A stretch of 59,304 nucleotides of DNA from a virus (Duplodnaviria; Caudoviricetes), in IMG/VR virus record IMGVR_UViG_3300037264_003947, positions 1 through 59,304 of that record. One strand, written 5' to 3'. Made by a program: the position numbers and the translations under genes. The notes below the pieces were generated by a model, which searched no databases, was not told where the DNA came from, and saw only the letters and a list, made by a program, of their open reading frames with translations. The first letter of the stretch is position 1; each line of letters opens with the position of its first letter. Positions 14,254-42,116 of the stretch are shown one piece after another.

Positions 14254-14264
14254 TTTATTTTACG

Positions 14265-14447: not shown

Positions 14448-14729
14448 TCATACATTATCTTTAATAAAAAACCTTCCATTTTCGCAAAGAACTGTTATAA
14501 TTTTTCCATCCAACAATCTCACTAGAAATTTTTTATACTTATACTCTTCGAAGATTTCAGAGCAAGTAAATGTTTTGCCAGAATCTGGTTCCTCAAATTC
14601 CGCAACTAATCCTTCGAAGGCATCGGGCGACCCAGCTATTTGCTTGGGTGCCCGCTTAAACGCCAATTTCAAATGATCTAAATTACTAAATCTAGTAAAA
14701 CTCGGTTGCACAAAAAGTTTTAGAGTCAT
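14448..14729 (-). CDS. Hypothetical protein
   Basis: 93 aa ORF. Confidence 0.55.
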   Translation of the reverse strand: MTLKLFVQPSFTRFSNLDHLKLAFKRAPKQIAGSPDAFEGLVAEFEEPDSGKTFTCSEIFEEYKYKKFLVRLLDGKIITVLCENGRFFIKDNV

Positions 14730-14764
14730 AAATTTTTCCTGAATTTTATTTTATCTTATCAAGT

Positions 14765-15610: not shown

Positions 15611-15614
15611 ACTT

Positions 15615-16364: not shown

Positions 16365-16798
16365 TACTTATCCTTGAAATATCTGAATGCTCTGTCCTGC
16401 ATTTCTCTCAAGCCGTCTAGCACCGCCGCTAACTTTGGCAGTCCACTAGTTGCGACATTGCCAATATGCTCGGATTCACCGAAATACTTGTTCTCAATAG
16501 TGTAATCCAAGAACTTAGCAATCCAGTAGTCTACTCCACGCATTGCTCTGCCAGCCGCTCGCTTTATGGCTTCCTCTCTGTCCCATGTGTCAATGTTATG
16601 GCACAAGCTCCAGCCGATACGATCCCTACCCAAAGCTACTATAACGCCAAACGGTCTGCCTTTCTGCTTTCCGTCAGTTGGAGTGGTTGGATCTGTCTTT
16701 GGGGCGTTTCTCCGCAAGTAGTTAACAAGTATTGGATACTTCTTACCACTGATAGTCACTGCGGAGCAATTGTCCATTTCCACTTTAAAATTAGGCAT
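16364..16798 (-). CDS. Hypothetical phage protein
   Basis: 144 aa with GGAGG SD; GWSLCH..D.WD....A.GRA. Confidence 0.65.
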   Translation of the reverse strand: MPNFKVEMDNCSAVTISGKKYPILVNYLRRNAPKTDPTTPTDGKQKGRPFGVIVALGRDRIGWSLCHNIDTWDREEAIKRAAGRAMRGVDYWIAKFLDYTIENKYFGESEHIGNVATSGLPKLAAVLDGLREMQDRAFRYFKDK

Positions 16799-16818
16799 AT
16801 TGCCTCCTATAAAAATTT

Positions 16819-16841
16819 ATAGGGGGTTTAGAACCCCCTAT
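16819..16841. terminator. Hairpin downstream of the Ro60 gene
   Basis: ATAGGGGGTT-TAG-AACCCCCTAT. Confidence 0.65.
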
Positions 16842-16847
16842 TAAAAA

Positions 16848-18440
16848 CTAGAGATTTCCATTTGCGATCATCTGGATAAATCGTGGAGTCTCAGAGGAGA
16901 AACCAGCGATATCGTAGGACTTGTTATCCTTTGGATCGCTCAAAGAACTTCTATCGGAATAAGGAGTAAGAACAACGTAGATGATTTTCGCATCAGCGTT
17001 AATCGTGTCCCTATACTTCTTCATCAAGGTAACAGGTTGCTTGCCCTGCCAGTTCTGTCCATCAGTCCAAATCACAAGGTTATCAGCCTTGAGCTTGTTG
17101 TCGATGGCAAACTGAATTGCACTTTCAACGTCAGTTCCAGCAGGAGTCATTGGCATGAAGCCACGGCTCAAAGCTTCCTTGAAAGAGGTCGTCTTTCGAA
17201 GCTTTGGAAAATCGCTCGTTGTGGTCGTAAAGGCAGAAGTAAAGTAATACTTCTCTGCCTTGATCGTAGCAAGAGCCATGATCGTAGCGACCTCGGAAGG
17301 TGTCATCCACATCGTCTCCAAAGGAGCAGTCTGCATAGAGCCAGAAACGTCGATTGAATGATAGAATACCTTGTTGGTTGGCTCAAGAGCAGTGAAAGCC
17401 TCTTCAACCGCCTTCTCAAGAATATCCTCGACAACTGGATGAGCAACCCAAGTCAACTGAGAACGACCAAGAGTTCCACTAGCAGAGTAAATCTTGTAGG
17501 CAGAAACGATGTTGATAGGGTGAACCCTACCCTTCACCAATCTCTCTTTCGTGAACTTCTCTTCAAGAACCTTGAGGTTCTCAATGTTGGTGAAAATACC
17601 CTTGTTAGTCAAATTGGCCAAGTTACGCAAAGTAGCCGTAATAGGCATCTTGGTGAAAAGAGCTTCCCAAATACCCTTGGTTCGTGCTACGTTTGCTGGA
17701 ATCATTTCCTGAGTCAAACCGAAATCAAGGATTGCCTTGATGACATCTGCCTCTTTCATATTTCCAGTCTTGAGAGACTCATAAATCCCGATGAGAGGAA
17801 GAGTCTCAATAGAAGCCTTCTTATCAGCCATCCAAGCAAACAGATTGCTTTCGGATGCATCCCGTGGAACTGGCTTGATCTTCCGAAGAACATCACGACC
17901 AGCCCAATTGTATCTGCTCTGATACTTGAGGAACTGATACTCAAGGCCCTTTACATCATGAGACGTAATCCACTTCTCGACTGCGGAATGAATAAGTCTA
18001 CCAAAGCCACGAAGGCCCTTGGTATACTCAAGGAACTCATAAAGGTGAGAAGCGGTTCTCACAATCTTATTGAAGATCTGTGAGAAATAAACCTTTGCAT
18101 CAATACCTCCCATAGAGAGATAAACAAGAGCAAGCAAAGGCGTGTGGTTATTGATTCCATGATCACTTGCGTAAACGATTTCGTCCGCAACGACCTTTGG
18201 ATCTTTTGCAACCATGCAGGAAAGAATCTTGACGTTTTCAGTCGTCAACTCTTCCTTACCCTGATAGAAAAGGTTATTCTCAGAGCCAGTCAAGAGCCAG
18301 CGTCTAAGAGCCGTGAGGTCATCGGCCACGAAAGCCTTACCCCCAGCCATGTTCTCAGTCATTTCAGCCTCTCGGCCAGGAATAACCTGAGTAGCAAGAA
18401 CATCCTTCTTCTTTGTGTGGAACGTGTAGCCAGACTTCAT
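16848..18440 (-). CDS. rsr: Ro60-related RNA-binding protein (TROVE + vWA)
   Basis: N.AGG.AF, LRRWLLTGS, KYQSRYNW..RDVLR, MPITATLRNL, RVHPI, vWA DVSGSM and TD MIDAS residues, DIAGFS. Confidence 0.93.
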   Translation of the reverse strand: MKSGYTFHTKKKDVLATQVIPGREAEMTENMAGGKAFVADDLTALRRWLLTGSENNLFYQGKEELTTENVKILSCMVAKDPKVVADEIVYASDHGINNHTPLLALVYLSMGGIDAKVYFSQIFNKIVRTASHLYEFLEYTKGLRGFGRLIHSAVEKWITSHDVKGLEYQFLKYQSRYNWAGRDVLRKIKPVPRDASESNLFAWMADKKASIETLPLIGIYESLKTGNMKEADVIKAILDFGLTQEMIPANVARTKGIWEALFTKMPITATLRNLANLTNKGIFTNIENLKVLEEKFTKERLVKGRVHPINIVSAYKIYSASGTLGRSQLTWVAHPVVEDILEKAVEEAFTALEPTNKVFYHSIDVSGSMQTAPLETMWMTPSEVATIMALATIKAEKYYFTSAFTTTTSDFPKLRKTTSFKEALSRGFMPMTPAGTDVESAIQFAIDNKLKADNLVIWTDGQNWQGKQPVTLMKKYRDTINADAKIIYVVLTPYSDRSSLSDPKDNKSYDIAGFSSETPRFIQMIANGNL

Positions 18441-18474
18441 TTTCAGCTACCTCCTTGATAGAATTTGTGAGATA

Positions 18475-18503
18475 ATTATACTAAATTTTTTGTTTTTTGT
18501 AAA
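18475..18503 (-). promoter_or_regulatory. Sigma70-type promoter for Ro60
   Basis: TTTACA-17 bp-TATAAT. Confidence 0.7.
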
Positions 18504-18511
18504 GAGAAAAC

Positions 18512-18573
18512 AGGGAACAAGTTTTTATCCAAAGGCTGCTTTTTCATAGTTAACCTTTAGAATTCAGTTCTCT
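18512..18573 (-). ncRNA. Y RNA-like element 7 (minimal, ~62 nt)
   Basis: AGAGAACTGA...GGTTAAC...CTTGTTCCCT terminal stem. Confidence 0.65.
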
Positions 18574-18592
18574 TTATTTAAGCAAAAAAAGT

Positions 18593-18759
18593 GCGGGAAC
18601 CAGGGCAACAAGAAAACGAATAATGATAAGCTTCATGATGATGGATGAATCTTATATCATTGCTGCTTTTTAAACCATGAAAAAGACTAGCGAAAACATA
18701 TCCTTAAATGCATCATTGGCTTCTAATGAATTTGTTAACGTCTTCTAGTCAGTTCCCGC
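18593..18759 (-). ncRNA. Y RNA-like element 6 (long, not tRNA-like)
   Basis: GCGGGAACTGA...CGTTAAC...CTGGTTCCCGC terminal stem. Confidence 0.65.
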
Positions 18760-18774
18760 TAAAGTTTCAAAGAA

Positions 18775-18840
18775 AACGAACAAGAAATTGTCGATAGGCA
18801 CTAACTTTACAAATGTTAACCTAAAGACGAGCAGTTCGTT
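18775..18840 (-). ncRNA. Y RNA-like element 5 (minimal)
   Basis: AACGAACTGC...GGTTAAC...CTTGTTCGTT. Confidence 0.62.
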
Positions 18841-18841
18841 A

Positions 18842-18912
18842 AGCGACCAACGGGAGTCGGACCCGTTTGTAAACCTTGGCAAGGTTTCATAATACCGTTA
18901 TATCATGGTCGC
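18842..18912 (-). tRNA. tRNA-Gly(GCC) inside the Y RNA array
   Basis: GCGACCA/TGGTCGC, AAACC-TT-GCC-AA-GGTTT, variant T-loop TCCGACT, U73. Confidence 0.82.
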
Positions 18913-23731: not shown

Positions 23732-24289
23732 ATGCGAAAGTGTTCTAAGTGCAAGACAATGAAAGATGACTCAAATTTCTATAAAAATAAAGCTATGAAA
23801 GAAGGGCTTTCTCATTATTGTAAAGAGTGTGATAATGAGAGAGGAAAAAAATATATAAATAAAGAAGCTCAAAAAAAGAGATCAAAAAGATGGTATGAAA
23901 ATAATAGAAGTCTAACAATAGAGAGAGCAATTAAGTGGGAAAAAGAAAATAAGGAGAAACATTACTTATTTACTAAAAATTATAAAAGAAAAAATCCAGA
24001 AATTTATACCTTAAACAAAAATAAAAGAAGAGCCAAGCAAAAAGAAACTGATATAACTATGGCTTATTTAAAACAATTAAAAGAAGAAACTGAAAATTGC
24101 CCTCTTTGTGGAGCAAAATTAAATAATATAAATTATCACCCAAATCAATATCACCTTGACCATATCATTCCTATAGGTATAAATGGTAAACATATGAAAA
24201 ACAATGTTAGATATATTTGTGGAAAATGTAATTTGGCTAGGCCAAGAAATGGAAGTGATTTAGTGGAGGCCCAACTTGGACTACTTTGA
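23732..24289 (+). CDS. HNH homing endonuclease, paralog of 7199..7819
   Basis: MRKCSKC..FYKN..GL..YCKEC; CPLCG...LDHIIP..GKH..NNVRYICGKCN. Confidence 0.88.
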   Translation: MRKCSKCKTMKDDSNFYKNKAMKEGLSHYCKECDNERGKKYINKEAQKKRSKRWYENNRSLTIERAIKWEKENKEKHYLFTKNYKRKNPEIYTLNKNKRRAKQKETDITMAYLKQLKEETENCPLCGAKLNNINYHPNQYHLDHIIPIGINGKHMKNNVRYICGKCNLARPRNGSDLVEAQLGLL

Positions 24290-30153: not shown

Positions 30154-31395
30154 GTGAGTGATGTTGGCGGACCTTTCAGTAGTTTAGTAACAGATAAACA
30201 CCCCTCTTATAAAAAGGCATTAAGAAACTTTAAAAAAAATGCCCTTATTAAGATGTATTTTGCTAATGAGAAATCCACCAAAAATAAAGATGAACTGGTA
30301 AGAGAAGACGGATCATATAAATTAAACCCTTTCTTAAAAGATGCTTTCAATTGGTTAGAAGCTGGAGCTAAAGAAGGGTTTTCTCCAGATAAATTTCATA
30401 ACTTAATTTACAATGCCTTTCATGCTCGTAGGGAAGATTTAGTTAAAGATGCATATAAAGATTGGCCTAATTTTGATTTTACTAAAGCTGAAAAAGTAAT
30501 TAAAGATTTTTTTCCAGCTTCCCTAGGCAATGATGTCACTTATCGTTATAGAGTTGAGAAATTTAAAGAACTTATTCTTTCTTTATTGCCAAATAATATA
30601 AAACAAAGCAAAGAAGAATTAGATAAAATAAAATCCACTGCTTCTAAACTAGCAACCAAGAAACTCAAAATTACTGAAGCTTCAAACGATAATAGTCTTT
30701 CACAAGAATTTTCAACTTTTTTCAAAAACTTAAGAAAAAAATACGATTCTTTAAATGTAATAAGAAATCGTATAAAATCCTTTATAAAAAATTGGGATAA
30801 TTTAGATATAGATAAAGCTAGAGTCATAGTACAAGAATATTATCAATTTCTAATAAAAAGATCTTCTCCTGCCCGAGAAGAAGCCTTGAAGACAGAGATG
30901 GAATTAGTTTTAGAAGTTTTTCCCTTGGGTATAAAAGAAACTCAAAGAAACATTAACCAGCTAAAAAATAATGCCTCTAAACTAGCAACCAAGAAACTCA
31001 AAATTACAGAAGCTTTACAAACAGTTAAGTTTCGTTATATGAGCGCTAGACACGACCCAGTCCCAGAAGTTAAAGTTCTAGACACAGAATATCCAGGTGC
31101 CGAAGGACAGAAAACCTACGGACAGAGACAGGACATTCTTGGTTGGAACCTTAATTACTTTGAAAACAAAAAAGAAGCTAAAAAAACTATAGATGAAATA
31201 GATGATTTTGCCAAAATTCTAGGTGCTGACAAGAAACAGAAATACGAAAGAATAAAAATGCTCTTCCCAGAGCAAGCTTCTTACTTAAGAAGATATATTA
31301 AGGACAATTGTAAGGGTGTTAAAATAAAGGAAGAAGGTCTATGGAGACCAGCTGACTGGGACGAGATAAAACACCTAAATACCCAATCCTTCTAA
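30154..31395 (+). CDS. Modular hypothetical protein with a duplicated domain
   Basis: ASKLATKKLKITEA occurs twice (30640, 30973). Confidence 0.7.
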   Translation: MSDVGGPFSSLVTDKHPSYKKALRNFKKNALIKMYFANEKSTKNKDELVREDGSYKLNPFLKDAFNWLEAGAKEGFSPDKFHNLIYNAFHARREDLVKDAYKDWPNFDFTKAEKVIKDFFPASLGNDVTYRYRVEKFKELILSLLPNNIKQSKEELDKIKSTASKLATKKLKITEASNDNSLSQEFSTFFKNLRKKYDSLNVIRNRIKSFIKNWDNLDIDKARVIVQEYYQFLIKRSSPAREEALKTEMELVLEVFPLGIKETQRNINQLKNNASKLATKKLKITEALQTVKFRYMSARHDPVPEVKVLDTEYPGAEGQKTYGQRQDILGWNLNYFENKKEAKKTIDEIDDFAKILGADKKQKYERIKMLFPEQASYLRRYIKDNCKGVKIKEEGLWRPADWDEIKHLNTQSF

Positions 31396-31443
31396 CCAAA
31401 AGCGGAAACCATAGTAAAGATAATCTCAAATTGAGGTATTATT

Positions 31444-34125
31444 ATGTTTAGAGTATGGTCCGCTGGCGATGACTTAAAAAATGAAACCTTTTCCTCTGCT
31501 GATACAGCTAGACCTGGATATTATCTAGGTATTGAAGGATTAGAAGTAAGAGATAATGTCAGTAAGGTAGATCTAGGCAGACCCTTAAGAAATATTTGGG
31601 AAAATACACAACACTTAAGCGATTTTGATGATAGAATGTTCTATCATGTCAAGGGTGATAGTTCTGGCGTATTTAATAGATCGTTAGTCAATGGATTTTC
31701 TATCGGTGATACTGATATAGTAACCGTAACGGTAAATCCTGGAACTGGTGATACTATTAGGTTCTATGCTCGTCTAGGACCTGGAATTGCTTATCATAAT
31801 AAACATGTAGTTGTCAATAGACCTCAAACTCAAATAGCAGAAAGACAAATATCTAAAATACTTAAGCTTGATGACTGGAAAGATGAAGGAGTATCAATTA
31901 GATACTTCTTTAATACTGACATGTTTCAAGCGAAAATAACAAAGAGAAATACCAACGCCGTTCCAATAAGTTATTACTTTGTAGATCCTGCCTTCTATGG
32001 TGACAGCACAAAGTGGGGCGATAGTAGAGTTGGTTATTCTTCTTCATTAAAACTATTCGAAGCAATATACAATACCGCAATTTTCACTTCTAGCTGTAGG
32101 ACTTCATTAGGCGATAGCATCGACTTAATACAATGCGAACCAGTAGTAAACTTTAAGAAATCACAAATAGTTTTTGCTGGTGACACAATTTTCTGGGTAG
32201 TTAAGGCAAATGGAAGCGTGGTAGGAACAACTACTTTCCCCGCTACTACAGACCTTTGCCTATGGGCCACAAAAGTAAATATTACGGCACAAGCAGGAAC
32301 TACAGTAAATAAGGGTGACTCTAGAAAATTCATTCCTTTATACCACGATTTCGGTCAGCACCTATTCCTAAATGTTCCTAAAGAATGGGCAGATACAAAT
32401 ACTTTAAGTATGACTAGACCTTGGAGTGATACAAGAAATCACCCCTATACTTTTGTAACTAATAGAAATAGTTTCATTGTATTCTTAAGACAAACTGCTG
32501 GAGTTGGAACTAGTCCAATACTAGGATGGACAGAAGACAATGCCGTAGGAGTCACTCCAGCTAGATCTGGAGTTTTCTATGGAAACAAAGATTTAATCAT
32601 AAGTAGATGGACTAACGCAGGAGATACTCTAGGTAGAGCTTGGGCTTCTGTAATGAGTATGTCTGGTGACTCTTGGACTTTCTATGGCGATAAAGGCTTA
32701 AGAAATGGTAGTTTTTTTCCAATGGCTTCTTCAGGGCAAAATCTTGGAAGACCTTCAAATACTTGGAGAGTTTGGGGAGACTCTGGAATATTTACTAGAA
32801 GTTTAAGTATAGGCGATACTGTTTTTGTAAATACTGTTAAATCTAATAAATTAATAGGTGATACTGTTTTTGTAAATACTGTTAAAGCATTAAAGTTTGT
32901 AGGTGATACTGTTTTTGTAAATACTGTTAAAGCATTAAAGTTTGTAGGTGATACTGTTTTTGTAAATACTGTTAAAGCATTAAAGTTTGTAGGTGATACT
33001 GTTTTTGTAAATACTGTTAAATCTAATAAATTAATAGGTGATACTGTTTTTGTAAATACTGTTAAATCTAATAAATTAATAGGTGATACTGCTTTTGTAA
33101 ATACTGTTGCTGTTAAAAAACATTTAGCAGCAGACACTATCTTTAATTATGGAGGAGTTTATAGTACTTTTGCTGGACATAAATTAATAGGTGACACTGC
33201 TTTTGTAAATACTGTTAAAGCAAAGAAACTTATAAGCGATAGCATATTTACTGGAACATTAAAGACCGCCGGTTCTACAAATATAGGTACCACTTTAAAT
33301 GTAACAGGTCATACTATTTTAAATACTTTGGGGACAACAGGTGCTGCCACTGTTGGAACTACTTTAGGAGTAACAGGAGCTACTATACTTAGCTCTACTT
33401 TAGCTGTAAATGGTGATGAACTCACTAGTACATCAGCTTCATTTAATTTATTGAATTCTCCTACTACTATAACTATTGGATCTACCACTGGAACTACAAC
33501 TATAAGATCTAAAAGAACAGTTGTTGGAACTACTGATGGTGACTCCTTTATAGTAAGAGGTGGAATAGTAAGACTTGGTAGCGGTGACTCTAACGGAATA
33601 TTCATGTTAAGCAGAAGAATATCTGCTGGTGATACTGGAAAGAGAATAACTACTGCTGGTGGTGATACAGGCATTCTATTTAGAGGTTCTATAAACGCTT
33701 ATAAAGTTTATAACGCAGTATGGAATGACTACGCAGAAGCTTTCACCTTTGATCCAAAAGAAAAACATCTAGTAGCTGGATATGTTTATGCACAAGGTCC
33801 AGATGGAGCAGTAAGGGCTAGAAGAAGAGCAGATAAAGCAACACTAGGAGTTTTCTCTGATACTTACGCAATGCTACTTGGTTCTAGAGGTTGTATATCA
33901 GAAGATAAGAATGGAACTAAAATACCTATAGCTCTAGCTGGTAAGGTTCAAATTTATGTTAGAGGAAAATTAGGTATAGGCGATTTGTTAGTTACTGATA
34001 AAAATGGATTTGGTGTAAAGGCCAACTTCTTTGAGCGAATATTTAAATCAGATAGAATACTTGGTAAAGTTCTAGAAAATCATAATGGGAATAATCCTTC
34101 TAGAATATGGATGTTAGTGAGGTAA
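31444..34125 (+). CDS. Tail fibre/spike with C-terminal intramolecular chaperone-like domain
   Basis: Beta-rich G/T repeats; C-terminal NDYAEAF...PIALAGKV...GDLLVT...GKVLE. Confidence 0.75.
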   Translation: MFRVWSAGDDLKNETFSSADTARPGYYLGIEGLEVRDNVSKVDLGRPLRNIWENTQHLSDFDDRMFYHVKGDSSGVFNRSLVNGFSIGDTDIVTVTVNPGTGDTIRFYARLGPGIAYHNKHVVVNRPQTQIAERQISKILKLDDWKDEGVSIRYFFNTDMFQAKITKRNTNAVPISYYFVDPAFYGDSTKWGDSRVGYSSSLKLFEAIYNTAIFTSSCRTSLGDSIDLIQCEPVVNFKKSQIVFAGDTIFWVVKANGSVVGTTTFPATTDLCLWATKVNITAQAGTTVNKGDSRKFIPLYHDFGQHLFLNVPKEWADTNTLSMTRPWSDTRNHPYTFVTNRNSFIVFLRQTAGVGTSPILGWTEDNAVGVTPARSGVFYGNKDLIISRWTNAGDTLGRAWASVMSMSGDSWTFYGDKGLRNGSFFPMASSGQNLGRPSNTWRVWGDSGIFTRSLSIGDTVFVNTVKSNKLIGDTVFVNTVKALKFVGDTVFVNTVKALKFVGDTVFVNTVKALKFVGDTVFVNTVKSNKLIGDTVFVNTVKSNKLIGDTAFVNTVAVKKHLAADTIFNYGGVYSTFAGHKLIGDTAFVNTVKAKKLISDSIFTGTLKTAGSTNIGTTLNVTGHTILNTLGTTGAATVGTTLGVTGATILSSTLAVNGDELTSTSASFNLLNSPTTITIGSTTGTTTIRSKRTVVGTTDGDSFIVRGGIVRLGSGDSNGIFMLSRRISAGDTGKRITTAGGDTGILFRGSINAYKVYNAVWNDYAEAFTFDPKEKHLVAGYVYAQGPDGAVRARRRADKATLGVFSDTYAMLLGSRGCISEDKNGTKIPIALAGKVQIYVRGKLGIGDLLVTDKNGFGVKANFFERIFKSDRILGKVLENHNGNNPSRIWMLVR
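32812..33110 (+). repeat. Tandem 45-bp (15 aa) repeat, about 7 copies, one more at 33190
   Basis: GDTVFVNTVK(SNKLI/ALKFV) units start at 32812, 32857, 32902, 32947, 32992, 33037, 33082. Confidence 0.95.
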
Positions 34126-34128
34126 GCA

Positions 34129-34773
34129 ATGGCTAAAGAAAATAGAATTTATTTAAATAGTTATAGAAAACCCTTTTATTTCGACAAAACTGGTGAAACA
34201 AAAAAATTGCCTAGTTGGGAAATACTGGAAGAATTTTTACAGAATATTGTTTTTAAAAAAGAAAGTTCTGGAGACACTGATTTTCTAACAATAAATCATT
34301 TTCTCATTGATTTTATTCCAACTAGTATGCTTACTTGGGGAATGAAATATGTTTCTTCTAGCCCAAAACAATATAAAATAAATTTTGCTTTTTCTATGTA
34401 TAATCTAGATCAAGCAAGTTTAGCAAAAAGTTGGTTTGATTCCTTTAAGCCTTACTTAAAAGATAGAGCTTCATATTTAATTTCTGCTACTGATTTTACT
34501 ACAACTATAAATAATTATCTAGAAAGAAAAAAAGTGACTGGTGATATGGCTATAGCAGATTTTGAAGATATTATTTATGTAGATAATGATGATTCTAAAA
34601 CTTTATATGATAATGTAAAAGTTTTAATGGGAAAGTTTGATGAAATAATAATCATTTCAAACATTAAAACACTTGACTTAAACTTACTATATTCTAGTTC
34701 GGAAGATGATATAATCTCTTTCCCTACCAAGAAATTAAAACTCATAAATAAGTATGATTTGAAAATAATATAA
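34129..34773 (+). CDS. Hypothetical protein
   Basis: 214 aa, directly after the tail fibre. Confidence 0.65.
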   Translation: MAKENRIYLNSYRKPFYFDKTGETKKLPSWEILEEFLQNIVFKKESSGDTDFLTINHFLIDFIPTSMLTWGMKYVSSSPKQYKINFAFSMYNLDQASLAKSWFDSFKPYLKDRASYLISATDFTTTINNYLERKKVTGDMAIADFEDIIYVDNDDSKTLYDNVKVLMGKFDEIIIISNIKTLDLNLLYSSSEDDIISFPTKKLKLINKYDLKII

Positions 34774-34782
34774 GGCAAAATT

Positions 34783-35151
34783 ATGGCATATACTTGGATA
34801 GGCTCAGTAGTTCGTGGTGCTAAAATAACAAATGAACTCGTATCAGAAATGAGAGTGCATGGGGATACTATTGCCACATGGAACTTAGCAAGAAATCCAT
34901 CTCCTGCTGCTTGTACCTCATATAATAAATGGGTATATCCATTAGCTTCTGGAGCAGATTCATATATAGCTACATTCAGCCAAATATTTGATGAGCTTCA
35001 ATATAACTTAAATCATTGGAGAGTAAATAACTGGTGCAGAGGATATGCTGTAACAGCTCATGTAACTCAACATAGTAGTAAGCAACTATCTTATAACGCT
35101 ACACAATATTCTCCAGCTTGCAGTCAATGTGTAGCACAAGGATCAGGTTAA
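34783..35151 (+). CDS. Small protein with Cys-containing C-terminus, candidate rSAM substrate
   Basis: C-terminal HVTQHSSK..YNATQYSPACSQCVAQ periodic tail. Confidence 0.6.
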   Translation: MAYTWIGSVVRGAKITNELVSEMRVHGDTIATWNLARNPSPAACTSYNKWVYPLASGADSYIATFSQIFDELQYNLNHWRVNNWCRGYAVTAHVTQHSSKQLSYNATQYSPACSQCVAQGSG

Positions 35152-35152
35152 T

Positions 35153-35788
35153 ATGGCCAAATTTACTTCAAGTCAGGGAAATTTTGCTTGGACCACAAGT
35201 GGTGCTCCTCCAACTGGAGTTGATAGATCTAGAACAGAATTTAGTGCCTATATAACTGAAGTCAAGGCCAATTTTGACTGGTTACAAGATAATTTAGAAA
35301 GTTGTTGGGCTGAAAAAGTTACTAGATGTGCTACTAGATATGATACTGTATTAACTACTGCTTATGGAGAAAGACATACAACTGCTAATGATACACAATA
35401 TGATGTTCAGCATACTACCAAGTATAGTTCTAATAATAGCACTTATTGCAGTCTTCAAAATGCTTCAATAAACTGGTCAATAAATAGCACAAATCACTCT
35501 GCAATTAATGGAACTGATCGAAATGTAGATAATGTCGTTGTAGATTCTTCAGTCTATTTGACCAACAATGCTCCGCAAAATGGTTCCGTCTACTCCCCTT
35601 ATAATGCCTCACGTTGTACATCTTATAATTCCACAATTCATTCTTCTGTAAGATCTACGCAATACGGTAGCAATTGTTCTACTGTACAAACATCAGATCA
35701 TACTGGAAGAAATGGCTCTAACTATACAGGAAATAATGCCACAAATCACAATAGTGTAAATGCTAATTTAGATTGTCAAGTCGGTTAA
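35153..35788 (+). CDS. Asn/Ser/Thr-rich 4-residue-periodic protein, candidate rSAM substrate
   Basis: N/H/Y/C/D/R at every fourth position for about 150 aa. Confidence 0.7.
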   Translation: MAKFTSSQGNFAWTTSGAPPTGVDRSRTEFSAYITEVKANFDWLQDNLESCWAEKVTRCATRYDTVLTTAYGERHTTANDTQYDVQHTTKYSSNNSTYCSLQNASINWSINSTNHSAINGTDRNVDNVVVDSSVYLTNNAPQNGSVYSPYNASRCTSYNSTIHSSVRSTQYGSNCSTVQTSDHTGRNGSNYTGNNATNHNSVNANLDCQVG

Positions 35789-35798
35789 AAGGAATGTT

Positions 35799-37154
35799 AT
35801 GCATCAATTTATCTCAACAGAAGTGCCGCAAGCGTCGGTTTGTAATTTAGATTGCGTTTATTGTTATATACCCAAAAATAAACAACTAACAAAAATACAT
35901 AAAAAATGGGCAGAAAAAATTAGAGATGGCACTCACAATGAAGTAATGTCAGAATATTTTAATGGCAACTTACAGGCAATTAGTTTCTGGGGTGGCGAAC
36001 CAACCCTAGGCATGAACGATTTACAAAGAATAGATGACTTACTTGATTTCAACAAAAATTTAACTAACCTTTCTACTTCTACAAATTTTGCTAGAATAGA
36101 AAATTTAGAATTTTTAATAAAAAAATTAGATGATTACCAAAAAAGAACTGGGAGAAATCTTCATTTGGGTATACAGGTTTCTTTAGATGGAACCAAAGAA
36201 AACACTGAAAAAAATAGGGGAAAAGGAACTTACGATAAAGTAGTAAGTAATTTGCTAAGACTAAAAGAATTCTCTAAAGAGATAAATTTTTTGAAAGTTA
36301 GAATTCACATAAAGGCTACCAATACAGCAGAAGATTACGAAGGGTTTGCCAAAAATCCTCAAACTTTAAAAGATTTCCTAGATTCATTTAACTATATAAA
36401 TAACCTAATTTTATCCACACCTTTTCCAGAAAACTGGGATGTGTCTTTAAAAACTCTACCTACTTTATCGTTGCCAGGAGATTATACTAAAGAAGATGGA
36501 GAAAATTTTTATAAGTATCATGTAGAGCTTAAAAAATTATTAGATACTGACTATAAGAATTATGTCCAAGAAGATGACTATATATTTAGATTCAGAACAC
36601 TGTGGGCAACTCAATATGAATTGAATAGAAATAATTTCATATTTCAATGCTCGGCAGGAAATTGCCAATTACCCATAGATCCAGAAGCAATGGTTCATAT
36701 GTGTCATGGAAGTTTCTGGTTCAACCAAGAAAATTATTTAGAAGAAACAGAAAATTCGGCAGCTGGATGGTGTGAGGGTGAAAGAATAGTAGATTTTGAT
36801 GCCGATAAATTCTGGAATGTAACTAAATCCACTATGGTAGAATATAGAGATAAGTATAATTTTGCTAGATCCAAATATACACTACGATGTTTTAATGACA
36901 TGATAGATCATTATTTAGCAATTACTTACTCAACCATTTTAATGCTAGCCAAAGCGGGACAGATTAGTGAAATTTACAAAGATGATGATTGGGCTAAAAT
37001 GTTTGCTTATTTTTTGGTATTAAAATCTGGTTGCTGGATGAATGGTTTATTAACAACTGGATCAATTTTTGTAATGCCTTTAAGCATATATAGAATATAT
37101 GGAAATGGGACTTTTGAATTTATAGTTAGAGATTTTGCAAGTAAAATACTATGA
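35799..37154 (+). CDS. Radical SAM enzyme with partial SPASM/twitch region
   Basis: CNLDCVYC, FWGGEP, QVSLDG, CSAG...MCH. Confidence 0.9.
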   Translation: MHQFISTEVPQASVCNLDCVYCYIPKNKQLTKIHKKWAEKIRDGTHNEVMSEYFNGNLQAISFWGGEPTLGMNDLQRIDDLLDFNKNLTNLSTSTNFARIENLEFLIKKLDDYQKRTGRNLHLGIQVSLDGTKENTEKNRGKGTYDKVVSNLLRLKEFSKEINFLKVRIHIKATNTAEDYEGFAKNPQTLKDFLDSFNYINNLILSTPFPENWDVSLKTLPTLSLPGDYTKEDGENFYKYHVELKKLLDTDYKNYVQEDDYIFRFRTLWATQYELNRNNFIFQCSAGNCQLPIDPEAMVHMCHGSFWFNQENYLEETENSAAGWCEGERIVDFDADKFWNVTKSTMVEYRDKYNFARSKYTLRCFNDMIDHYLAITYSTILMLAKAGQISEIYKDDDWAKMFAYFLVLKSGCWMNGLLTTGSIFVMPLSIYRIYGNGTFEFIVRDFASKIL

Positions 37155-37357
37155 ACATAAAAGAAAAATTAATTGAAGACTGTAAAAATCTTATTATATT
37201 AAATAAACATCTAATGAATTTAATAGAGAATGAGTTAAGATTTAAGCCAGAGGTCGTTGATGCTCTTATAGAATTTTCAGATATTAGCAAAGAAGAAATG
37301 CCAAAACATACACTTCATAGCTTCTGGAAAGAAAGAATTACAAAACAAAAGATATGA
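37151..37357 (+). CDS. Small hypothetical protein between the rSAM genes
   Basis: 68 aa, ATGA-coupled on both sides. Confidence 0.6.
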   Translation: MNIKEKLIEDCKNLIILNKHLMNLIENELRFKPEVVDALIEFSDISKEEMPKHTLHSFWKERITKQKI

Positions 37358-38685
37358 AAAAAGAATATATAGATCAAAATAGAGAGTTATTTAAAAACTT
37401 TCTAGAGGCAACTTTTTTTAAAAATTGGAGAGAGTCAAGTAGAGATAAAATTGCAATAGAAAATTATCAATCTGTAGAAATGTCTATAGGTTATAAATGC
37501 GATCTTCACTGCAAGTATTGTTATTATAGCAGATATGGTAAAGAACTCTATCAAAACAAACCAGTCAAGGCAAACGACATATTAAAAAATACTGAAAAGT
37601 TAATGAACTTTTTCGTTAAAAATAATATGTGTGTAAAAATAGAACTTTTTTCTGGAGATCCTTTTAATCTTCCTTATGTTTGGGATTATTTTGATATTAT
37701 TCTAAAGTATTCAGAGATGATGCCAATTGAAAAAAGGCCAGGGTATCTTTCTATACCTACAAATCTTTCTTTTTTACGATCAGAAGATGATACAAAATTA
37801 AATAAGATAAAAGATTATATATTAAAATTTGAGAAAATAGATGTTCCGTTTTATTTATCTGGTTCTGTTGATGGTCCTTTCATGGATAAGTTTAATAGAC
37901 CTTCGATAAAACAATTTAATTATGAAAAAAATTTTTATGATAAAGTATTAAAGTATGGGAAAGAGATTCGTTATGGTTATCATCCAATGATATACTCTAA
38001 CAATATAGAAAACTGGATAGAAAACTTTCTCTGGTTTTATTATTTAACAGAAAACCTATATTTACTAGAAGTAAGAAATGCTGAATGGACCGAAGAACAA
38101 TGTGTTCAAATTTATTATTTAATGAAGTTTATAATTCATTTTCTCTATAATGCAAAAGATAAAGATATTAAAAAAATGAACGAAATTTTGCAAGCAAATA
38201 AAGGATACAATATTTTGATGAGTCCTTTTATGAGAACTGGGAGAGGTTTGGGTTGCTCAATGCAAAGTACTTTAAATTTTCAAATGAATGACCTAACTAT
38301 TGTTCCTTGCCATAGAACTTCTTATAATGAATTCGTCGCTGGTAGCATGATCCTAAATGATGATGGATCTTATGATTTTAATCCAAAAAATGTGGAATAT
38401 TATTTAGCAGAACAATCAACTCAAATAAATAGGACTTATCCATGTGTTTCTTGCTCTGTCAATGAAATGTGTAGTGGTGGATGTTTGGGTTCAAATTATG
38501 AATCAACGGGAGATCCTTTCGTTCATCATCCAAATATGTGCAGAATGGAACATTATAAAATAGCGGGAATAATACATGGGTTTGATGAAATTGGTTTATT
38601 GGACGAATTTATGCGTGGCCAGACTGAAAGAAAAAAATCACAAGTTCAATATGTTTTAAAGACTTTTGGAGAAAAAAATGGATAA
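37354..38685 (+). CDS. Radical SAM/SPASM peptide-maturase-like enzyme
   Basis: CDLHCKYC, FSGDP, SVDGP, SPASM GC...PCHR...CVSCSVNEMCSGGCLG...C. Confidence 0.92.
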   Translation: MKKEYIDQNRELFKNFLEATFFKNWRESSRDKIAIENYQSVEMSIGYKCDLHCKYCYYSRYGKELYQNKPVKANDILKNTEKLMNFFVKNNMCVKIELFSGDPFNLPYVWDYFDIILKYSEMMPIEKRPGYLSIPTNLSFLRSEDDTKLNKIKDYILKFEKIDVPFYLSGSVDGPFMDKFNRPSIKQFNYEKNFYDKVLKYGKEIRYGYHPMIYSNNIENWIENFLWFYYLTENLYLLEVRNAEWTEEQCVQIYYLMKFIIHFLYNAKDKDIKKMNEILQANKGYNILMSPFMRTGRGLGCSMQSTLNFQMNDLTIVPCHRTSYNEFVAGSMILNDDGSYDFNPKNVEYYLAEQSTQINRTYPCVSCSVNEMCSGGCLGSNYESTGDPFVHHPNMCRMEHYKIAGIIHGFDEIGLLDEFMRGQTERKKSQVQYVLKTFGEKNG

Positions 38686-39223
38686 AGATTTCAATTTAGT
38701 AGAAATAGAATTAAGAAAAGATTTTATTATAGTAGAACCTGATTTAGCATTTTTTACAAATGATAATAGTTTTCCAATGTTCTTAAAAGATTTCATGGAA
38801 AAATTATTTAACAACATTAAGGAAGCTATGGCCGATAAGGAAGTTTCCGAATTTAAAGATGTTAAAAATTGTTTGAAAAGATTTTTTCAATCAATTATTG
38901 ATGCCAGTAGTTTTAAATTGTTGGACTATAGAAGCATTTCCTTCTTAACCAATTTTTTACTTTTAATAAACAATTGGTTGTTAATGATAGAACAGGGAAA
39001 TCTTTTGCCATTTTTTGATTTATCTAAAGAAGAAGTTGATAGTCTCAAAAAAACTAGCGAAGATTTAACGGAAATAATTACTTTAAATTTGGATGTAGAA
39101 AATTTACACAATTTAACAAATAGATTAATGAAAAAAGCAGAACAAATTCTAGCATCAGTTCCATCTAACTTCAAAATAAGCGAACATTTTTTCAACGTCT
39201 TAAAGAAAGAAATAACTAAATGA
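38678..39223 (+). CDS. Hypothetical protein
   Basis: Helical ORF; ATG at 38678 after GGAG. Confidence 0.6.
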   Translation: MDKDFNLVEIELRKDFIIVEPDLAFFTNDNSFPMFLKDFMEKLFNNIKEAMADKEVSEFKDVKNCLKRFFQSIIDASSFKLLDYRSISFLTNFLLLINNWLLMIEQGNLLPFFDLSKEEVDSLKKTSEDLTEIITLNLDVENLHNLTNRLMKKAEQILASVPSNFKISEHFFNVLKKEITK

Positions 39224-40056
39224 CATTTATAAATAAAGAAAAGTTGCCAACAACAAATTTTTTATATTCCCTTAAGCATTTAGCAATTCCTAATAAAGTC
39301 ATTTTGACTAAATTGGAAATTAAAGATGTTGAATCATTAGAGACGCTAATATTTTTTAATCCTAATTACGATGATTTAAAATTAACTGAAGATCTAAACA
39401 AAAAAATAATATTGTTTTTTTCTTATATTGATGAAGAACTACTTCCACTTCTAGGACATCAGAACATATTAAAGATAATAGTTTTTGATGATTTGGATGC
39501 TTTATTTCTTACAAAAAATCATATAAGAAATTTTGAATTGGCCTTTCCTTCTATAGATAAAATAGATACTACAGATGTGTATAACTATTTTTCTATCTTT
39601 AATGATATACAAGATGTTGATGTAAGAAAAATAATTGAAGCCAAAGCATTATGTAATGTAAGTTATTTTGGTTATAAACATATAAACAAGACACTAGACT
39701 TCAATAAGTTAAAAGACATAATGTATGCAGGAATTAAGATAGTTCCTTTTGCAATATTTGACATGCACGAAAAAATAGCTAGATTTCAATATACAATAGA
39801 TTTTTCAAACAAGCATTTCCCAATAGTTTCATTTTACTCTGCTCTTTGCAACAAAATTCCAATCCATTATGGTAATAGATACTTTAAATGGATGGCTTCT
39901 GAAACTCAAAATCCATCTGCAGAAACTCTTGGCAAGATATTAGCAGATGAGAATTTTAGAAAAAACATCATAGAAAAACAACAAGCAAGAATGTCAGATG
40001 TTTTTAATAATAGACGAAAAGTGGAAGAAATTTTAAATGAAATTAAACCAATGTAA
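39220..40056 (+). CDS. Possible divergent GT-B glycosyltransferase
   Basis: C-terminal LGKILADENFRKNIIEK helix pattern; adjacent to a GT4-like gene; weak. Confidence 0.4.
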   Translation: MTFINKEKLPTTNFLYSLKHLAIPNKVILTKLEIKDVESLETLIFFNPNYDDLKLTEDLNKKIILFFSYIDEELLPLLGHQNILKIIVFDDLDALFLTKNHIRNFELAFPSIDKIDTTDVYNYFSIFNDIQDVDVRKIIEAKALCNVSYFGYKHINKTLDFNKLKDIMYAGIKIVPFAIFDMHEKIARFQYTIDFSNKHFPIVSFYSALCNKIPIHYGNRYFKWMASETQNPSAETLGKILADENFRKNIIEKQQARMSDVFNNRRKVEEILNEIKPM

Positions 40057-40879
40057 CGGACCAGTAAATAAATACTACGAACAATTATTAAATAATGGAA
40101 TCATTAAAGAAAGCGATAATGTTTTAGTAGATCCGCGTAACGAAAAGGAATTTCCTGATATTAACGATTTAGTTATCTTACAACAAGGAGATCTTTCTTG
40201 GAATGTAAAAAATTTTTCAAAAATAAAGTATATATTTACTCCATCTCTTTATCTATATGAAAAATATAGTTATAGTAAAAAAATATTTTTAATACCTTTT
40301 GCAATTGAGCCTGAATATAAAAAAATAAGTAAATGGTCTGATAGAGAAAACGCCCTTTATTATCACGGAAGAATAATTTCTGAAAAATTAGGAATAATTG
40401 GCTTAACGAAATTATGTTCAGAAGGAATAAAAATAGTTCTACGAGGACCAATTTGTAAAGAATACTGGACCGATAAAGATATTGAGCGTCCAGAATTTAT
40501 TTCCTATAAAGAAAAAGTCTCTAAACTCAATATAGAATTTTTACCACCCACAGATGATAAAGAAGTAATAATAAACGATCTTAACAAATACAAATTTTAT
40601 TTCACTCTATCTAATGGGGAATGCTTTAATCTCGCTCTACAAGAAGCAATAGCTTGCGGAACCATACCTTTAGTAAAACCTAATTTTGCGTATTGGTGGG
40701 CAGAACACTTAATACTACAATTTGAAAATACCAATGAACTAATTAAAAAATTCAATGGTCTAAAAGATATGGACATGGACGAATATTCTAGTCTACTTTC
40801 AAAAGAATTGCATAAAAGATTTAATTATGAATCTTTAATTAAATCGTATGAGTATCAGAAAAAAGAATTATTTCCTTAA
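40037..40879 (+). CDS. Glycosyltransferase, GT4-like
   Basis: YHGRIISEK and S..ECFNLALQEAIACG (E-x7-E). Confidence 0.8.
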   Translation: MKLNQCNGPVNKYYEQLLNNGIIKESDNVLVDPRNEKEFPDINDLVILQQGDLSWNVKNFSKIKYIFTPSLYLYEKYSYSKKIFLIPFAIEPEYKKISKWSDRENALYYHGRIISEKLGIIGLTKLCSEGIKIVLRGPICKEYWTDKDIERPEFISYKEKVSKLNIEFLPPTDDKEVIINDLNKYKFYFTLSNGECFNLALQEAIACGTIPLVKPNFAYWWAEHLILQFENTNELIKKFNGLKDMDMDEYSSLLSKELHKRFNYESLIKSYEYQKKELFP

Positions 40880-42116
40880 TTAAAATATCTATTTCTTCTA
40901 TCGTATTAAATCTATTTAAAGAAATTCTAACACTTTTAAATGCCTCTTCATCTGTAAGATCTAAAGCCTTTAATACATAAGAAGGTTTCTTTTCGTTAGC
41001 ATTACAGGCAGAACCAGCAGAAATAAAAATGCCTTTATTAGATAAATGTTCTATCAACTTCTCGCCATATATTTCTTTAAATGTTATAGAAGATGTATTT
41101 ACCAAACGAGGAGAGTTCTTACAATTAATTGTTGCTCCAAACTTAACTAATTGATCTTCCATATAGTTTCTTAAAGCTTCTATTTTTGGAAGATCGCTTT
41201 CTACCAAATTATCAATTGCCTCTCCCATTCCTACAATTAAAGGCATATTATAAGTTCCAGCCCTCTTATCCCATTCTTGATGCCCGCCTTGAATAAAAGA
41301 TTTAATTGTATTCATGTCTTTAATATATAAAACTGACACTCCAACAGGACCACCAAATTTATGAGCAGTAAAAGTAGCAAAATCAAGATTTCCTACCTTT
41401 ACATCTTTCATCTTTCCTAAACATTGGCACATATCAGAGTGAACTAGCGCATTAGGATTAGCAAACTTAATCTCATTAACATAATCATGAATAGGAAGTA
41501 TGCTACCAGTTTCATTATTGGCAGTCATTATACTTACTAGGCAAGGTTCTTTTGAAAGTTCTATGACTTTTTCTAGATCTATATAGCCGTTGTTAAATAC
41601 ACCTACTTCAAAAGCATTCATTTTTTTGGAAGAATTAATGATGCAACTATGTTCAATAGAACTTATAATGACCTTATTAAAAGTTCCTTTAATTACCATG
41701 TTATTAGATTCTGATCCAGAAGCGGTAAAAATAAGATTAGATGGTTTACAACCAATCTTATTTGCTATTTTAGCTCTAGCTTGTTCTAGATAAGCTCTAG
41801 TTCTTTCTCCAGCTTCATGTCTAGAAGAAGGGTTGCCAACTACATCATACATTTCTCTTATTTTATTTGCCACTTTAGGCAACACTGGATGCGTAGCATT
41901 GTTGTCTAAATAAATAAATTGATTAAATTTCTTACTAGTTAGCTCGTGCATTCTTTCACTTTTAGGTGATGGACATAAAGGACTATAAGAAGCATAATCA
42001 GAACTACAAGAAGAAAGCATTTCTTTTCTAATTTCTTCTCTTATTTTTTCTCTATCAAAATCTAAAATTGGTAAATCAATTTTTTTTGTTTCTTGTGTTT
42101 GCCATTCATATCTCAT
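40839..42116 (-). CDS. iscS: Cysteine desulfurase (IscS/NifS class I)
   Basis: IYLDNNAT, GNPSS.H, ANNETG, TAHKFGG (PLP Lys), RAGTYN, SAGSAC. Confidence 0.92.
   Translation of the reverse strand: MRYEWQTQETKKIDLPILDFDREKIREEIRKEMLSSCSSDYASYSPLCPSPKSERMHELTSKKFNQFIYLDNNATHPVLPKVANKIREMYDVVGNPSSRHEAGERTRAYLEQARAKIANKIGCKPSNLIFTASGSESNNMVIKGTFNKVIISSIEHSCIINSSKKMNAFEVGVFNNGYIDLEKVIELSKEPCLVSIMTANNETGSILPIHDYVNEIKFANPNALVHSDMCQCLGKMKDVKVGNLDFATFTAHKFGGPVGVSVLYIKDMNTIKSFIQGGHQEWDKRAGTYNMPLIVGMGEAIDNLVESDLPKIEALRNYMEDQLVKFGATINCKNSPRLVNTSSITFKEIYGEKLIEHLSNKGIFISAGSACNANEKKPSYVLKALDLTDEEAFKSVRISLNRFNTIEEIDILIKEIILFSDTHTI

Follow-up and report, generated by a model that had tools for sequence, protein, structure and literature searches.

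Why would a tailed phage set a protein built largely of four-residue units directly in front of two radical S-adenosylmethionine (radical SAM, rSAM) enzyme genes? The question is raised by the open reading frame (ORF) at 35153-35788 (+) in the IMG/VR virus record IMGVR_UViG_3300037264_003947, whose entire 59,304 bases we analysed and refer to as the window. The record, estimated to be ~29% complete, is part of a large tailed-phage genome and carries portal, large terminase, baseplate-wedge, ribonucleotide-reductase and dUTPase genes. With its ATG at 35153 and its stop at 35786-35788, the ORF encodes a protein of 211 amino acids (aa), labelled P0001; other P-numbers likewise label proteins, and L-numbers (L004, L038 and so on) label related loci. 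P0001 belongs to a cassette that consists of two paralogous tetrad proteins, two radical SAM enzymes, of which one is twitch-type and the other SPASM-type, and small helical accessory proteins, one or two in number. We consider it fairly likely that P0001 is a substrate of the radical SAM enzymes, and the protein is probably an enzyme-modified, virion-fibre-type protein of a new kind. Among rSAM-matured repeat proteins the cassette would be new in being phage-borne, in having two substrates, in the protein size of these substrates and in its period of four. Its core, and the segments of P0001, are as follows.

34783-35151, + strand: paralogous short tetrad-repeat protein, 122 aa, with the junction DELQ-x-NL-x5-NWCRGY and then about 8-10 tetrads
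35153-35326, + strand: N-terminal domain (N-domain) of P0001, residues 1-58, non-periodic and conserved
35327-35785, + strand: tetrad region of P0001, residues 59-211, 39 tetrads of the form [N/Y/H/C/D]-[S/T/A/G]-[T/S]-x in a single register
35450-35662, + strand: central tetrads of P0001, residues 100-170, fast-evolving, between two conserved 41-residue arms
35799-37154, + strand: rSAM1, radical SAM enzyme 1, 451 aa, twitch-like, with C15-x3-C19-x2-C22 plus C284, C302 and C412
37354-38685, + strand: rSAM2, radical SAM enzyme 2, 443 aa, full SPASM, with C49-x3-C53-x2-C56 plus a 7-Cys pattern

Four-residue periodicity of P0001 and its family

The initial annotation had described P0001 as strictly periodic at four residues. 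Indeed, a cyclic four-state hidden Markov model (HMM) resolved 39 tetrads with 0 slips, starting at C59 just past the junction C51-W-A-E-K and reading CATR YDTV LTTA YGER HTTA NDTQ YDVQ HTTK YSSN NSTY CSLQ, then NASI NWSI NSTN HSAI NGTD ... NATN HNSV NANL DCQV G. In neither residue class, S/T or N/H/Y/C, did any shuffle (0/5000) match the period-4 Fourier power of residues 73-211. Residues 1-72 are non-periodic, their power being reached by 3997/5000 (S/T) and 596/5000 (N/H/Y/C) shuffles; the non-periodic start that had been put at ~50 residues is thus real but about 58 residues long. Past residue 70, Ser/Thr are confined to tetrad positions 2 and 3 (40/40) and absent from 1 and 4, while position 1 takes 6/6 His and 14/24 Asn. 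Over the whole tail, position 1 is N/Y/H/C/D in 34/39 tetrads (Tyr or His in 14, Cys in 4) and position 3 is S/T in 26/38. Translated in six frames, the window holds 150 ORFs that are 70 aa or longer, of which P0001 ranked 1st for period-4 S/T autocorrelation (z 10.6) and ORF 34783-35151 ranked 2nd (z 3.8).

This regularity has no counterpart in the DNA, as had been claimed at the outset. When the tetrad DNA was compared with the whole window by blastn, only the self-match was returned (next best E 0.27), and the region holds short chance-level matches plus one 2.3-copy repeat of 12 nucleotides (nt). The position-1 codons are NAY in 27/39 tetrads and TGY in 4/39. NAY codons had raised the idea of a diversity-generating retroelement target, which was rejected as no template repeat occurs in the window of this ~29% complete record.

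The N-domain carries the motif S-x-G-x-F-x-W ... E-[IV]-K-x-N-x-D-W-L-x-D-N-L-E-x-C-[FW]-x-E-K, in which S7, G9, W13, N40, D42, E49, C51 and K55 are invariant across 13 sequences. It is unrelated to the N-terminus of the neighbouring tail-fibre-like protein (hhalign probability 0.2%). We infer that this domain is an enzyme-recognition and/or assembly element and that residues 59-211 are the region on which the enzymes act. Between close relatives, dN/dS (the ratio of non-synonymous to synonymous change) is 0.12-0.46 in the N-domain. When the window was compared with L008 and L007, the central tetrads had a dN of 0.28-0.65 vs 0.03-0.07 in the arms, and a dN/dS of 0.42-0.69 vs 0.05-0.41; non-synonymous change in residues 100-170 is 4 to 19 times faster than in the arms. 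Tetrad positions 1 and 3 were better conserved in 2/3 close-relative comparisons, and the register is kept among these relatives save for one 2-residue deletion in P0002. Since dN/dS is below 1 in all segments, P0001 is a genuine gene under constraint, and its middle is exposed or tolerant.

Relatives of the tetrad proteins were seen only in phage or metagenome DNA, and finding them took several routes. Megablast of 31000-41000 and tblastn of P0001 gave no match in 50,697 phage records, and IMG/VR locus searches with single P0001, with rSAM1 or with alignment A2 gave nothing, as did a degenerate junction-motif DNA pattern (0 loci in IMG/VR). The junction-motif DNA pattern did return 18 metagenome loci, 7 of them true, and 9 genome loci, none true. 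A full HMMER scan of 1.8 billion representative proteins yielded 17 P0001 matches that have the N-domain in common, with a polar tail behind it, and that include a member of 822 aa; a word-indexed protein search found a single P0001 relative and none among longer proteins, and an ESM Atlas search with P0001 gave nothing usable (best score 0.76). Finally, 29 loci were retrieved from IMG/VR with an alignment of distant rSAM1 relatives, which together with the 7 metagenome loci makes 36 related loci, their flanks limited to 5-8 kb. P0001 matches no NCBIfam family at E<=0.1 except for one chance-level match at 0.06, and the tetrad proteins, like the accessory protein o185 described below, fall outside every curated Pfam, NCBIfam and PHROGs family.

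The start of P0001 had also been said to resemble that of the 122-aa ORF directly upstream, whose tetrads read AVTA HVTQ HSSK QLSY NATQ YSPA CS... Pairwise BLASTP of the two is non-significant (E 0.23), but when their families are aligned by hhalign the probability is 95.4% (E 1.8e-8) over the helix-plus-Cys junction and the first tetrads. The likeness therefore stands as paralogy, although the extreme N-terminus itself does not align. On these profile alignments the 122-aa ORF and its relatives form a sister family of P0001, with the junction D-E-L-Q-x-N-L-x-x-L-K-x-x-N-[WY]-C-R-G-[YH] followed by tetrads. A homologue of the 122-aa ORF lies directly 5' of the P0001 homologue in 7/7 metagenome loci, and paralogues of this type in other loci have far longer tetrad tails than the window copy.

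Periodicity is a property of the family, as 19/19 tails show S/T autocorrelation with positive values for lags 4, 8 and 12 and negative ones for 2, 6 and 10. In 43 further proteins, 5401 tail residues contain only 59 register slips, with the following leading residues in each tetrad position.

Position 1: D 0.31, N 0.20, Y 0.15, K 0.07, C 0.06, H 0.05
Position 2: S 0.35, G 0.12, T 0.11, A 0.11
Position 3: T 0.24, S 0.22, G 0.22
Position 4: Y 0.20, V 0.19, D 0.15, H 0.12

Asp and Asn together thus make up 51% of position 1 across the family. Tails range from 37 to 333 residues, or 10 to >80 tetrads, and [YHFW]-x-[ST] is about twofold enriched in most of them. In two members the junction motif is preceded by a Laminin_G_3 (ConA-like lectin) domain (55.7 and 60.2 bits), and such members reach 596 aa; the 822-aa protein, P0016, is a fused-form member with a large insert. 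Members of the family are proteins rather than short peptide precursors, and they are probably surface-exposed.

Two loci deserve separate mention. At 6780-9067 of L038 lie two extremely Asp-rich tetrad proteins of 394 and 377 aa, both with a 16-residue super-repeat of four tetrads (e.g. DDTA DATK NVTV DASQ), which hints at a higher-order coil of four tetrads. Elsewhere, a 612-aa ORF in L012 (1-1940, - strand) shares DNA, read in a different frame, with a 65-aa segment matching the N-domain of P0001; the pair resembles the 822-aa P0016 and may reflect a frameshift or an assembly error.

The initial annotation had further stressed the abundance of N-x-[S/T] triplets, counting more than a dozen. 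P0001 contains 15, against 6.7 +/- 2.0 expected (0/10000 shuffles reach 15). The excess, however, is confined to the window clade: the tails of the window protein, L008 and P0002 have 15, 11 and 10 sites (shuffle means 6.8, 6.2 and 4.9), whereas the other 16/19 family tails have 3-9, near their shuffle means. The richness follows from the preference of the window clade for Asn at position 1, and the weight placed on it was not borne out; N-glycosylation as a rationale for the family was rejected, as the sequon excess is not conserved across homologues.

Two radical SAM enzymes linked to the tetrad genes

Judged by their sequences, both enzymes belong to the radical SAM superfamily. rSAM1, which starts 10 nt past the P0001 stop, scores 39.1 bits on PF04055 (cutoff 29.5), and its cysteines and CNLDCVYC motif are invariant in 7 sequences. 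rSAM2 scores 23.4 bits on the same family, under the cutoff, and 28.7 bits on the SPASM domain TIGR04085, above the cutoff of 27; its SPASM cysteines are C301, C319, C364-x2-C367-x5-C373-x3-C377 and C396, and its cysteines and CDLHCKYC motif are invariant in 3 sequences. The best NCBIfam match of rSAM1 is the twitch-domain radical SAM family NF033640 (55.7 bits), with named families far below their cutoffs, while rSAM2 aligned with the PapB family over residues 39-388 at 55.6 bits (cutoff 340). Weak NCBIfam matches of the two, each far under its family cutoff, include PapB, the anaerobic sulfatase maturase, CefB, YhhB, the CXXX-repeat maturase, HxsB and HxsC, and the cutoffs of the YhhB, XyeB, FxsB and GrrM families were missed by about tenfold or more. 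The NCBIfam matches of rSAM2 are mostly to peptide or protein maturases, as are most of the top 25 of rSAM1, and the best solved relative of both is the triceptide synthase ChlB (E 5e-4 and 5e-3). In a set of 5.8 billion proteins rSAM1 had 89 relatives, all generically named (several carry the JGI label AslB-like) and some on contigs of up to 478 kb. One of these relatives, P0025, is 802 aa long and contains intein/LAGLIDADG Pfam domains, an intein-interrupted copy on a 278-kb contig.

As to the linkage of these enzymes to the tetrad proteins, one metagenome locus ends short of the enzyme position; in the 6/6 that reach far enough rSAM1 lies directly 3' of the P0001 homologue, rSAM2 comes next in the 5/5 that reach further, and the remaining operon genes keep their order as far as each contig extends. 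All IMG/VR loci (29/29) have an adjacent rSAM2 homologue. There, tetrad proteins were found by HMM (E<=0.01) in 28/29, with two genes in 26, and the last locus, L053, holds two short tetrad proteins with the junction motif that were recognised by eye. A feature of ribosomally synthesised, post-translationally modified peptides (RiPPs), namely a substrate gene beside a maturase gene, was therefore present in 6/6 metagenome and 29/29 IMG/VR loci (one by eye). Homologues lacking radical SAM genes, which the initial annotation had named as the finding that would speak for an ordinary unmodified fold, were sought and none was found among the loci examined.

In 23 of the 29 IMG/VR loci the tetrad genes lie 5' of rSAM1; in 4 they stand between the enzyme genes, and in 2 they lie 3' of rSAM2. 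With three gene orders, the linkage is not just inherited synteny, and its survival through rearrangement is strong evidence of shared function. In the window the family HMMs matched only ORFs 34783-35151 and 35153-35788, and they had 0 matches in 6 other phage rSAM loci and 20 chance-pattern loci. The six, L029-L034, are IMG/VR loci retrieved with the rSAM1 alignment that carry two or three distant rSAM genes (about 30 bits) without tetrad proteins; they apparently represent a different phage rSAM cluster and served as negative controls, not as relatives.

In a few loci the enzyme genes are interrupted by stop codons. The rSAM genes of L039 and L040 (5028-7716) are broken only by in-frame TGA at a conserved Trp (..ISH*GSEPS.., ..DGPA*ITD..), and those of L059 (5316-7735) by TAG in frame. 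TGA or TAG is probably a sense codon in these phages, and the presence of the cassette in them implies that it is widespread among uncultivated phages.

Proposed modification and competing explanations

How might the enzymes act on such a chain? We propose that the N-domain, which ends in the helix-plus-Cys junction, would be the handle recognised by the enzymes or the accessory proteins, so that the junction Cys and the N-domain present the tail to the enzymes. By analogy with sactisynthase structures, the fourth ligand of a three-Cys auxiliary cluster like that of rSAM1 could be a substrate Cys. The enzymes would then move along the tetrads and modify them once per unit or once every few units. 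A beta-CH2 beside an sp2 carbon is common to Asp, Asn, Tyr and His, and radical SAM enzymes are known to abstract hydrogen at such beta-carbons, forming thioethers at Asp/Asn and cross-links at aromatic beta-carbons. Hydrogen abstraction at the beta-carbon of the position-1 residue would thus be the likeliest chemistry, favouring one epimerisation or cross-link per unit at positions 1 and 3; a cross-link to position 3 might be a three-residue cyclophane-like, ether or ester-like one. For any particular bond our confidence is much lower than for P0001 being a substrate.

Such modification could turn a polar chain that is unable to fold by itself into a stiff, protease-resistant rod. The product would remain a protein, used in or on the tail-fibre apparatus and possibly as a hetero-oligomer of the paralogues, with the fast-evolving central tetrads as its exposed part; in the window clade, two downstream glycosyltransferases may add sugars. 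More speculatively, the cassette might define a new fibre class, in which a tetrad chain ([D/N/Y/H]-small-[T/S/G]-x, >80 units) is stapled covalently by the rSAM pair for tail fibres or receptor-binding appendages, a possibility that we hold only tentatively. If true, no virion fibre cross-linked by enzymes would have been known before, and the radical chemistry at the beta-carbons of Asp, Asn, Tyr and His would be new.

Radical SAM/SPASM enzymes are known to mature short peptides and a few cellular proteins. A conserved phage cassette that pairs two such enzymes with two long tetrapeptide-repeat proteins would carry this chemistry over to proteins of viruses, probably structural ones, and would offer enzymology a substrate with dozens of equivalent sites and phage biology a candidate covalent post-translational modification of the host-recognition apparatus. 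The repeat itself, polar, of period 4 and in strict register without DNA repeats, forms a new class. The family is defined by its motifs, by alignments A3, A4, A5, A7 and A9 and by the 36 loci, and is ready for direct testing. Literature searches, judged by titles and abstract openings, turned up no description of the cassette, and the triceptide and HXS supplements may hold further precursor motifs.

Several known systems help to place the proposal, and two of them, the antiphage system HXS described below (PMC13128918) and TvgA/TvgB (PMC9062424), are precedents for it. Triceptides are three-residue cyclophane RiPPs made by rSAM/SPASM synthases that link an aromatic ring to the beta-carbon of residue 3, as with ChlB on YDR, HtkB on HTK and HaaB on HAA (PMC11499958). 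The Y/H-x-S/T units found here match such aromatic-X-X motifs, and ChlB is the best solved, if marginal, match of both enzymes. Unlike triceptide precursors, however, P0001 begins only 14/39 tetrads with Tyr or His, Asp and Asn, which are incapable of forming cyclophanes, dominate family-wide, and all cyclophane-synthase cutoffs were missed. The TVGG-repeat peptide TvgA is repeatedly modified by TvgB to poly-cyclopropylglycine (PMC9062424), which resembles our proposal in having a four-residue repeat core and one modification per repeat by one rSAM enzyme. TvgA is a short bacterial peptide with exact TVGG units in a cluster with an oxidase, a peptidase and a transporter (PMC9062424), whereas the tetrad repeat here is degenerate, polar, protein-sized and served by two enzymes; neither P0001 nor the window enzymes count as members of that system.

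The initial annotation had likened P0001 to the CXXX-repeat targets of radical SAM enzymes (maturase TIGR04115). The rSAM link was confirmed and the analogy is apt, in that the key residue recurs every four residues and the substrate gene adjoins an rSAM/SPASM gene. Membership of that system did not hold: Cys occupies only 4/39 first positions, the enzymes score 35.6 and 19.9 bits vs 350, and the substrates here are long phage proteins. The anaerobic sulfatase maturase and QhpD, both among the weak NCBIfam matches, are alike in being twitch/SPASM enzymes with no obvious RiPP recognition element (RRE) that act on whole proteins, but scores fall far short of the cutoffs (50.2 vs 349, and 33.2 and 28.7 vs 453 bits) and the window offers no sulfatase or dehydrogenase context; the sulfatase motif C/S-x-P/A-x-R was not noticed on reading P0001, for which no search was made.

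A number of observations count against P0001 being an enzyme-modified fibre protein. The enzyme-substrate link is deduced from the neighbourhood of the genes, and the virion location from neighbouring genes and the lectin domain. Neither rSAM enzyme reaches the cutoff of any named maturase, and the ChlB match is only at E 5e-4 and 5e-3. The window cassette has no recognisable RRE/PqqD-type domain, protease or exporter: scans of Pfam, NCBIfam, PHROG and PDB gave no RRE or PqqD-like family in o68, o185 (the small ORFs of the cassette) or the rSAM N-termini, where the cluster motif begins at residue 15 (rSAM1) and residue 49 (rSAM2), and scans of Pfam, NCBIfam and PHROG gave no leader protease or exporter in the cassette. 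The residues in position 1 (D, N, Y, K, C, H) differ chemically, and no single known type of cross-link suits all tetrads. The co-occurrence counts are not fully independent, since every locus belongs to an uncultivated phage and the phages may have ancestry in common; L039/L040 and L056/L062 are pairs of near-duplicates. Lastly, two glycosyltransferase-like genes in the window clade leave room for glycosylation as the main modification.

39220-40056, + strand: GT-B-fold glycosyltransferase-like protein, 278 aa, from an ESM Atlas model
40037-40879, + strand: glycosyltransferase group 1-like protein, 280 aa, with weak family matches

With these two genes ending the operon, P0001 could instead be a mucin-like stalk with sugars on Ser/Thr (positions 2 and 3) or Asn, for which the rSAM pair would synthesise or tailor the sugar rather than the protein; some twitch-type rSAM enzymes are known to have small molecules as substrates. 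The confinement of all Ser/Thr past residue 70 to two fixed positions, the 15 N-x-S/T sites of P0001 and an extra carbamoyltransferase in L019 would suit such a stalk. We nevertheless think it unlikely, since glycosyltransferase homologues occur in only 7 loci (window included, within the 5-8 kb flanks) vs the rSAM pair in all, 16/19 family tails show no N-x-S/T excess, and some tails are short or Ser/Thr-poor yet keep Asp/Asn in position 1. Moreover, the SPASM domain of rSAM2 is complete, and the alignment of this enzyme with peptide maturases runs from end to end. The 278-aa model resembles GT1/GT4-type clusters (TM score 0.70-0.78 over residues 1-276); the protein has no Pfam match and has homologues in L016 and L019 only. 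The 280-aa protein has weak GT4/GT1 matches (E 0.009-0.09) and a PHROG glycosyltransferase match (E 2.3e-4), and its homologues make up the 7 loci just mentioned, that of L019 scoring 26.2 bits on PF00534 (cutoff 26.4).

Might the chain fold without any modification, as a tetrapeptide-repeat solenoid or beta-spiral, perhaps stabilised by metal, while the adjoining rSAM genes serve another process? Pentapeptide-repeat proteins form a quadrilateral beta-helix from a short degenerate repeat in strict register without DNA repeats, and D, N, H and Y, as found in position 1, are typical ladder or metal-binding residues. The strict register of P0001 without DNA repeats is likewise that of solenoid folds, and the 16-residue super-repeat of the two L038 proteins, expected of a four-sided coil, parallels the design of four repeats per coil. 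The period is 4 and not 5, however, and the tetrads have neither a hydrophobic centre residue nor a confident predicted fold: hydrophobic residues are only 9-18% of family tails, and AlphaFold2 models of P0001 reached a pLDDT (per-residue confidence) of 30.4 with 2 sequences and 40.8 with 16, showing low-confidence helices and no beta structure. This lack of a confident fold for the modelled, unmodified monomer fits a need for modification or assembly, without proving such a need. To our knowledge pentapeptide-repeat proteins are not linked to rSAM enzymes, whereas the rSAM pair stands beside tetrad genes in every locus examined and in three gene orders. We consider an unmodified solenoid improbable.

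A similarly doubtful possibility is that P0001 is a true RiPP- or HxsA-type precursor, whose N-domain is cleaved and whose tail is released as an effector (superinfection exclusion, anti-host-defence) rather than built into the virion. In the antiphage system HXS, the effector HxsA with its HxS repeats is matured by the two rSAM enzymes HxsB and HxsC and the small protein HxsD (PMC13128918). The cassette is alike in its repeat protein in place of a short peptide, its two distinct rSAM enzymes and its small partner, a resemblance of design only (PMC13128918), and in the H-x-S/T triplets among the window tetrads (HTT, HSA, HSS, HNS). HxsA is also N-terminally processed (PMC13128918), the P0001 N-domain is leader-like, and a subtilisin-like ORF (GTSxSSP motif, seen by eye) lies 3' of the cassette in L053 (8940-9965, +), the locus with the shortest tetrad proteins. 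In contrast to the phage-borne cassettes, with two substrates and 10 to >80 tetrads whose position 1 in the family is mostly Asp/Asn/Tyr, HxsA is bacterial and exported and has a peptidoglycan-binding domain and only five repeats (PMC13128918). rSAM1 falls far short of membership, at 31 bits vs 370 for HxsB and 27.6 vs 267.9 for HxsC, and the HxsA threshold was missed too. A released effector is further disfavoured by the lack of a protease or exporter in the family scans of the window cassette, by the lack of an N-terminal hydrophobic segment visible in the P0001 sequence (no signal-peptide predictor was applied), by lectin-domain members of up to 596 aa, by tails of 150-330 residues that far exceed known RiPP cores and by tail-fibre genes being the usual neighbours.

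Accessory and flanking genes

The genes from 34129 to 40879 are packed, with gaps of at most 10 nt or overlaps; a scan gave no intergenic terminator-like site on the + strand there, and promoter-like sites were fewer than expected from shuffles. Besides the genes listed above, the cassette and its flanks contain the following.

31444-34125, + strand: tail-fibre-like protein of 893 aa that contains repeats of ~15 residues and has a C-terminal domain (residues ~735-893) that is conserved
34129-34773, + strand: 214-aa ORF with phmmer/jackhmmer matches in L007 and L008 only, the two closest loci
37151-37357, + strand: o68, 68-aa ORF between the rSAM genes, overlapping both by 4 nt
38666-39223, + strand: o185, accessory protein of ~181-185 aa, whose start may be the ATG at 38678
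40839-42116, - strand: class-V aminotransferase / cysteine-desulfurase-type protein (PF00266, 184 bits), convergent with the cassette

The small helical accessory protein o185 is the fifth component of the cassette. Its relatives, found by jackhmmer in 25/29 IMG/VR loci plus L016 and L019, mostly lie directly 3' of rSAM2, and it is duplicated in L035-L038, with one copy after each rSAM gene; these are the four loci with substrates between the enzymes. There, an o185-like gene takes the place after rSAM1 that o68 occupies in the window. The relatives of o68 (jackhmmer) are found only in the window clade (L007, L008, L015, L016 and L019), and neither o68 nor the 214-aa ORF matches a Pfam, NCBIfam or PHROG family. 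ORFs of 229-253 aa occupy the place of the 214-aa ORF in L004, L012, L015 and L016, a correspondence of position only. o185 has no significant Pfam or PDB match, and PDB sequence searches likewise gave no significant match for the C-terminal 207 residues of the tail-fibre-like protein or for the 280-aa glycosyltransferase-like protein.

Tail-fibre or virion-structural genes lie 5' of the cassette in many loci. In the window this place is held by the 893-aa protein, which weakly matches the PHROG tail-fibre family phrog_19602 (E 0.0078). Its C-terminal ~160-200 residues recur directly 5' of the cassette in L004, L008, L012, L015, L016 and L019 (E 1e-40 to 1e-43) and more weakly in L038-L042, L054 and L058. 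This C-terminal domain includes VWNDYAEAF and has no Pfam or PDB match, and the region 32682-33137 encodes about nine tandem 15-residue units GDTVFVNTVK-x-x-K-[LF]-[IV].

Downstream, the product of 40839-42116 could supply sulfur for the Fe-S clusters of the enzymes. In L019 (2-1192, - strand) a carbamoyltransferase N-terminal domain (PF02543, 123 bits) lies three genes 3' of the glycosyltransferase homologue. Further afield, the window has a G+C content of ~33% and 7 tRNA genes (Arg x2, Gln x2, Lys, Val and Gly) at 11770-18912 on the - strand, and the + strand block that holds the cassette opens with an HNH endonuclease gene at 23732-24289 (+; PF01844, 26.6 bits).

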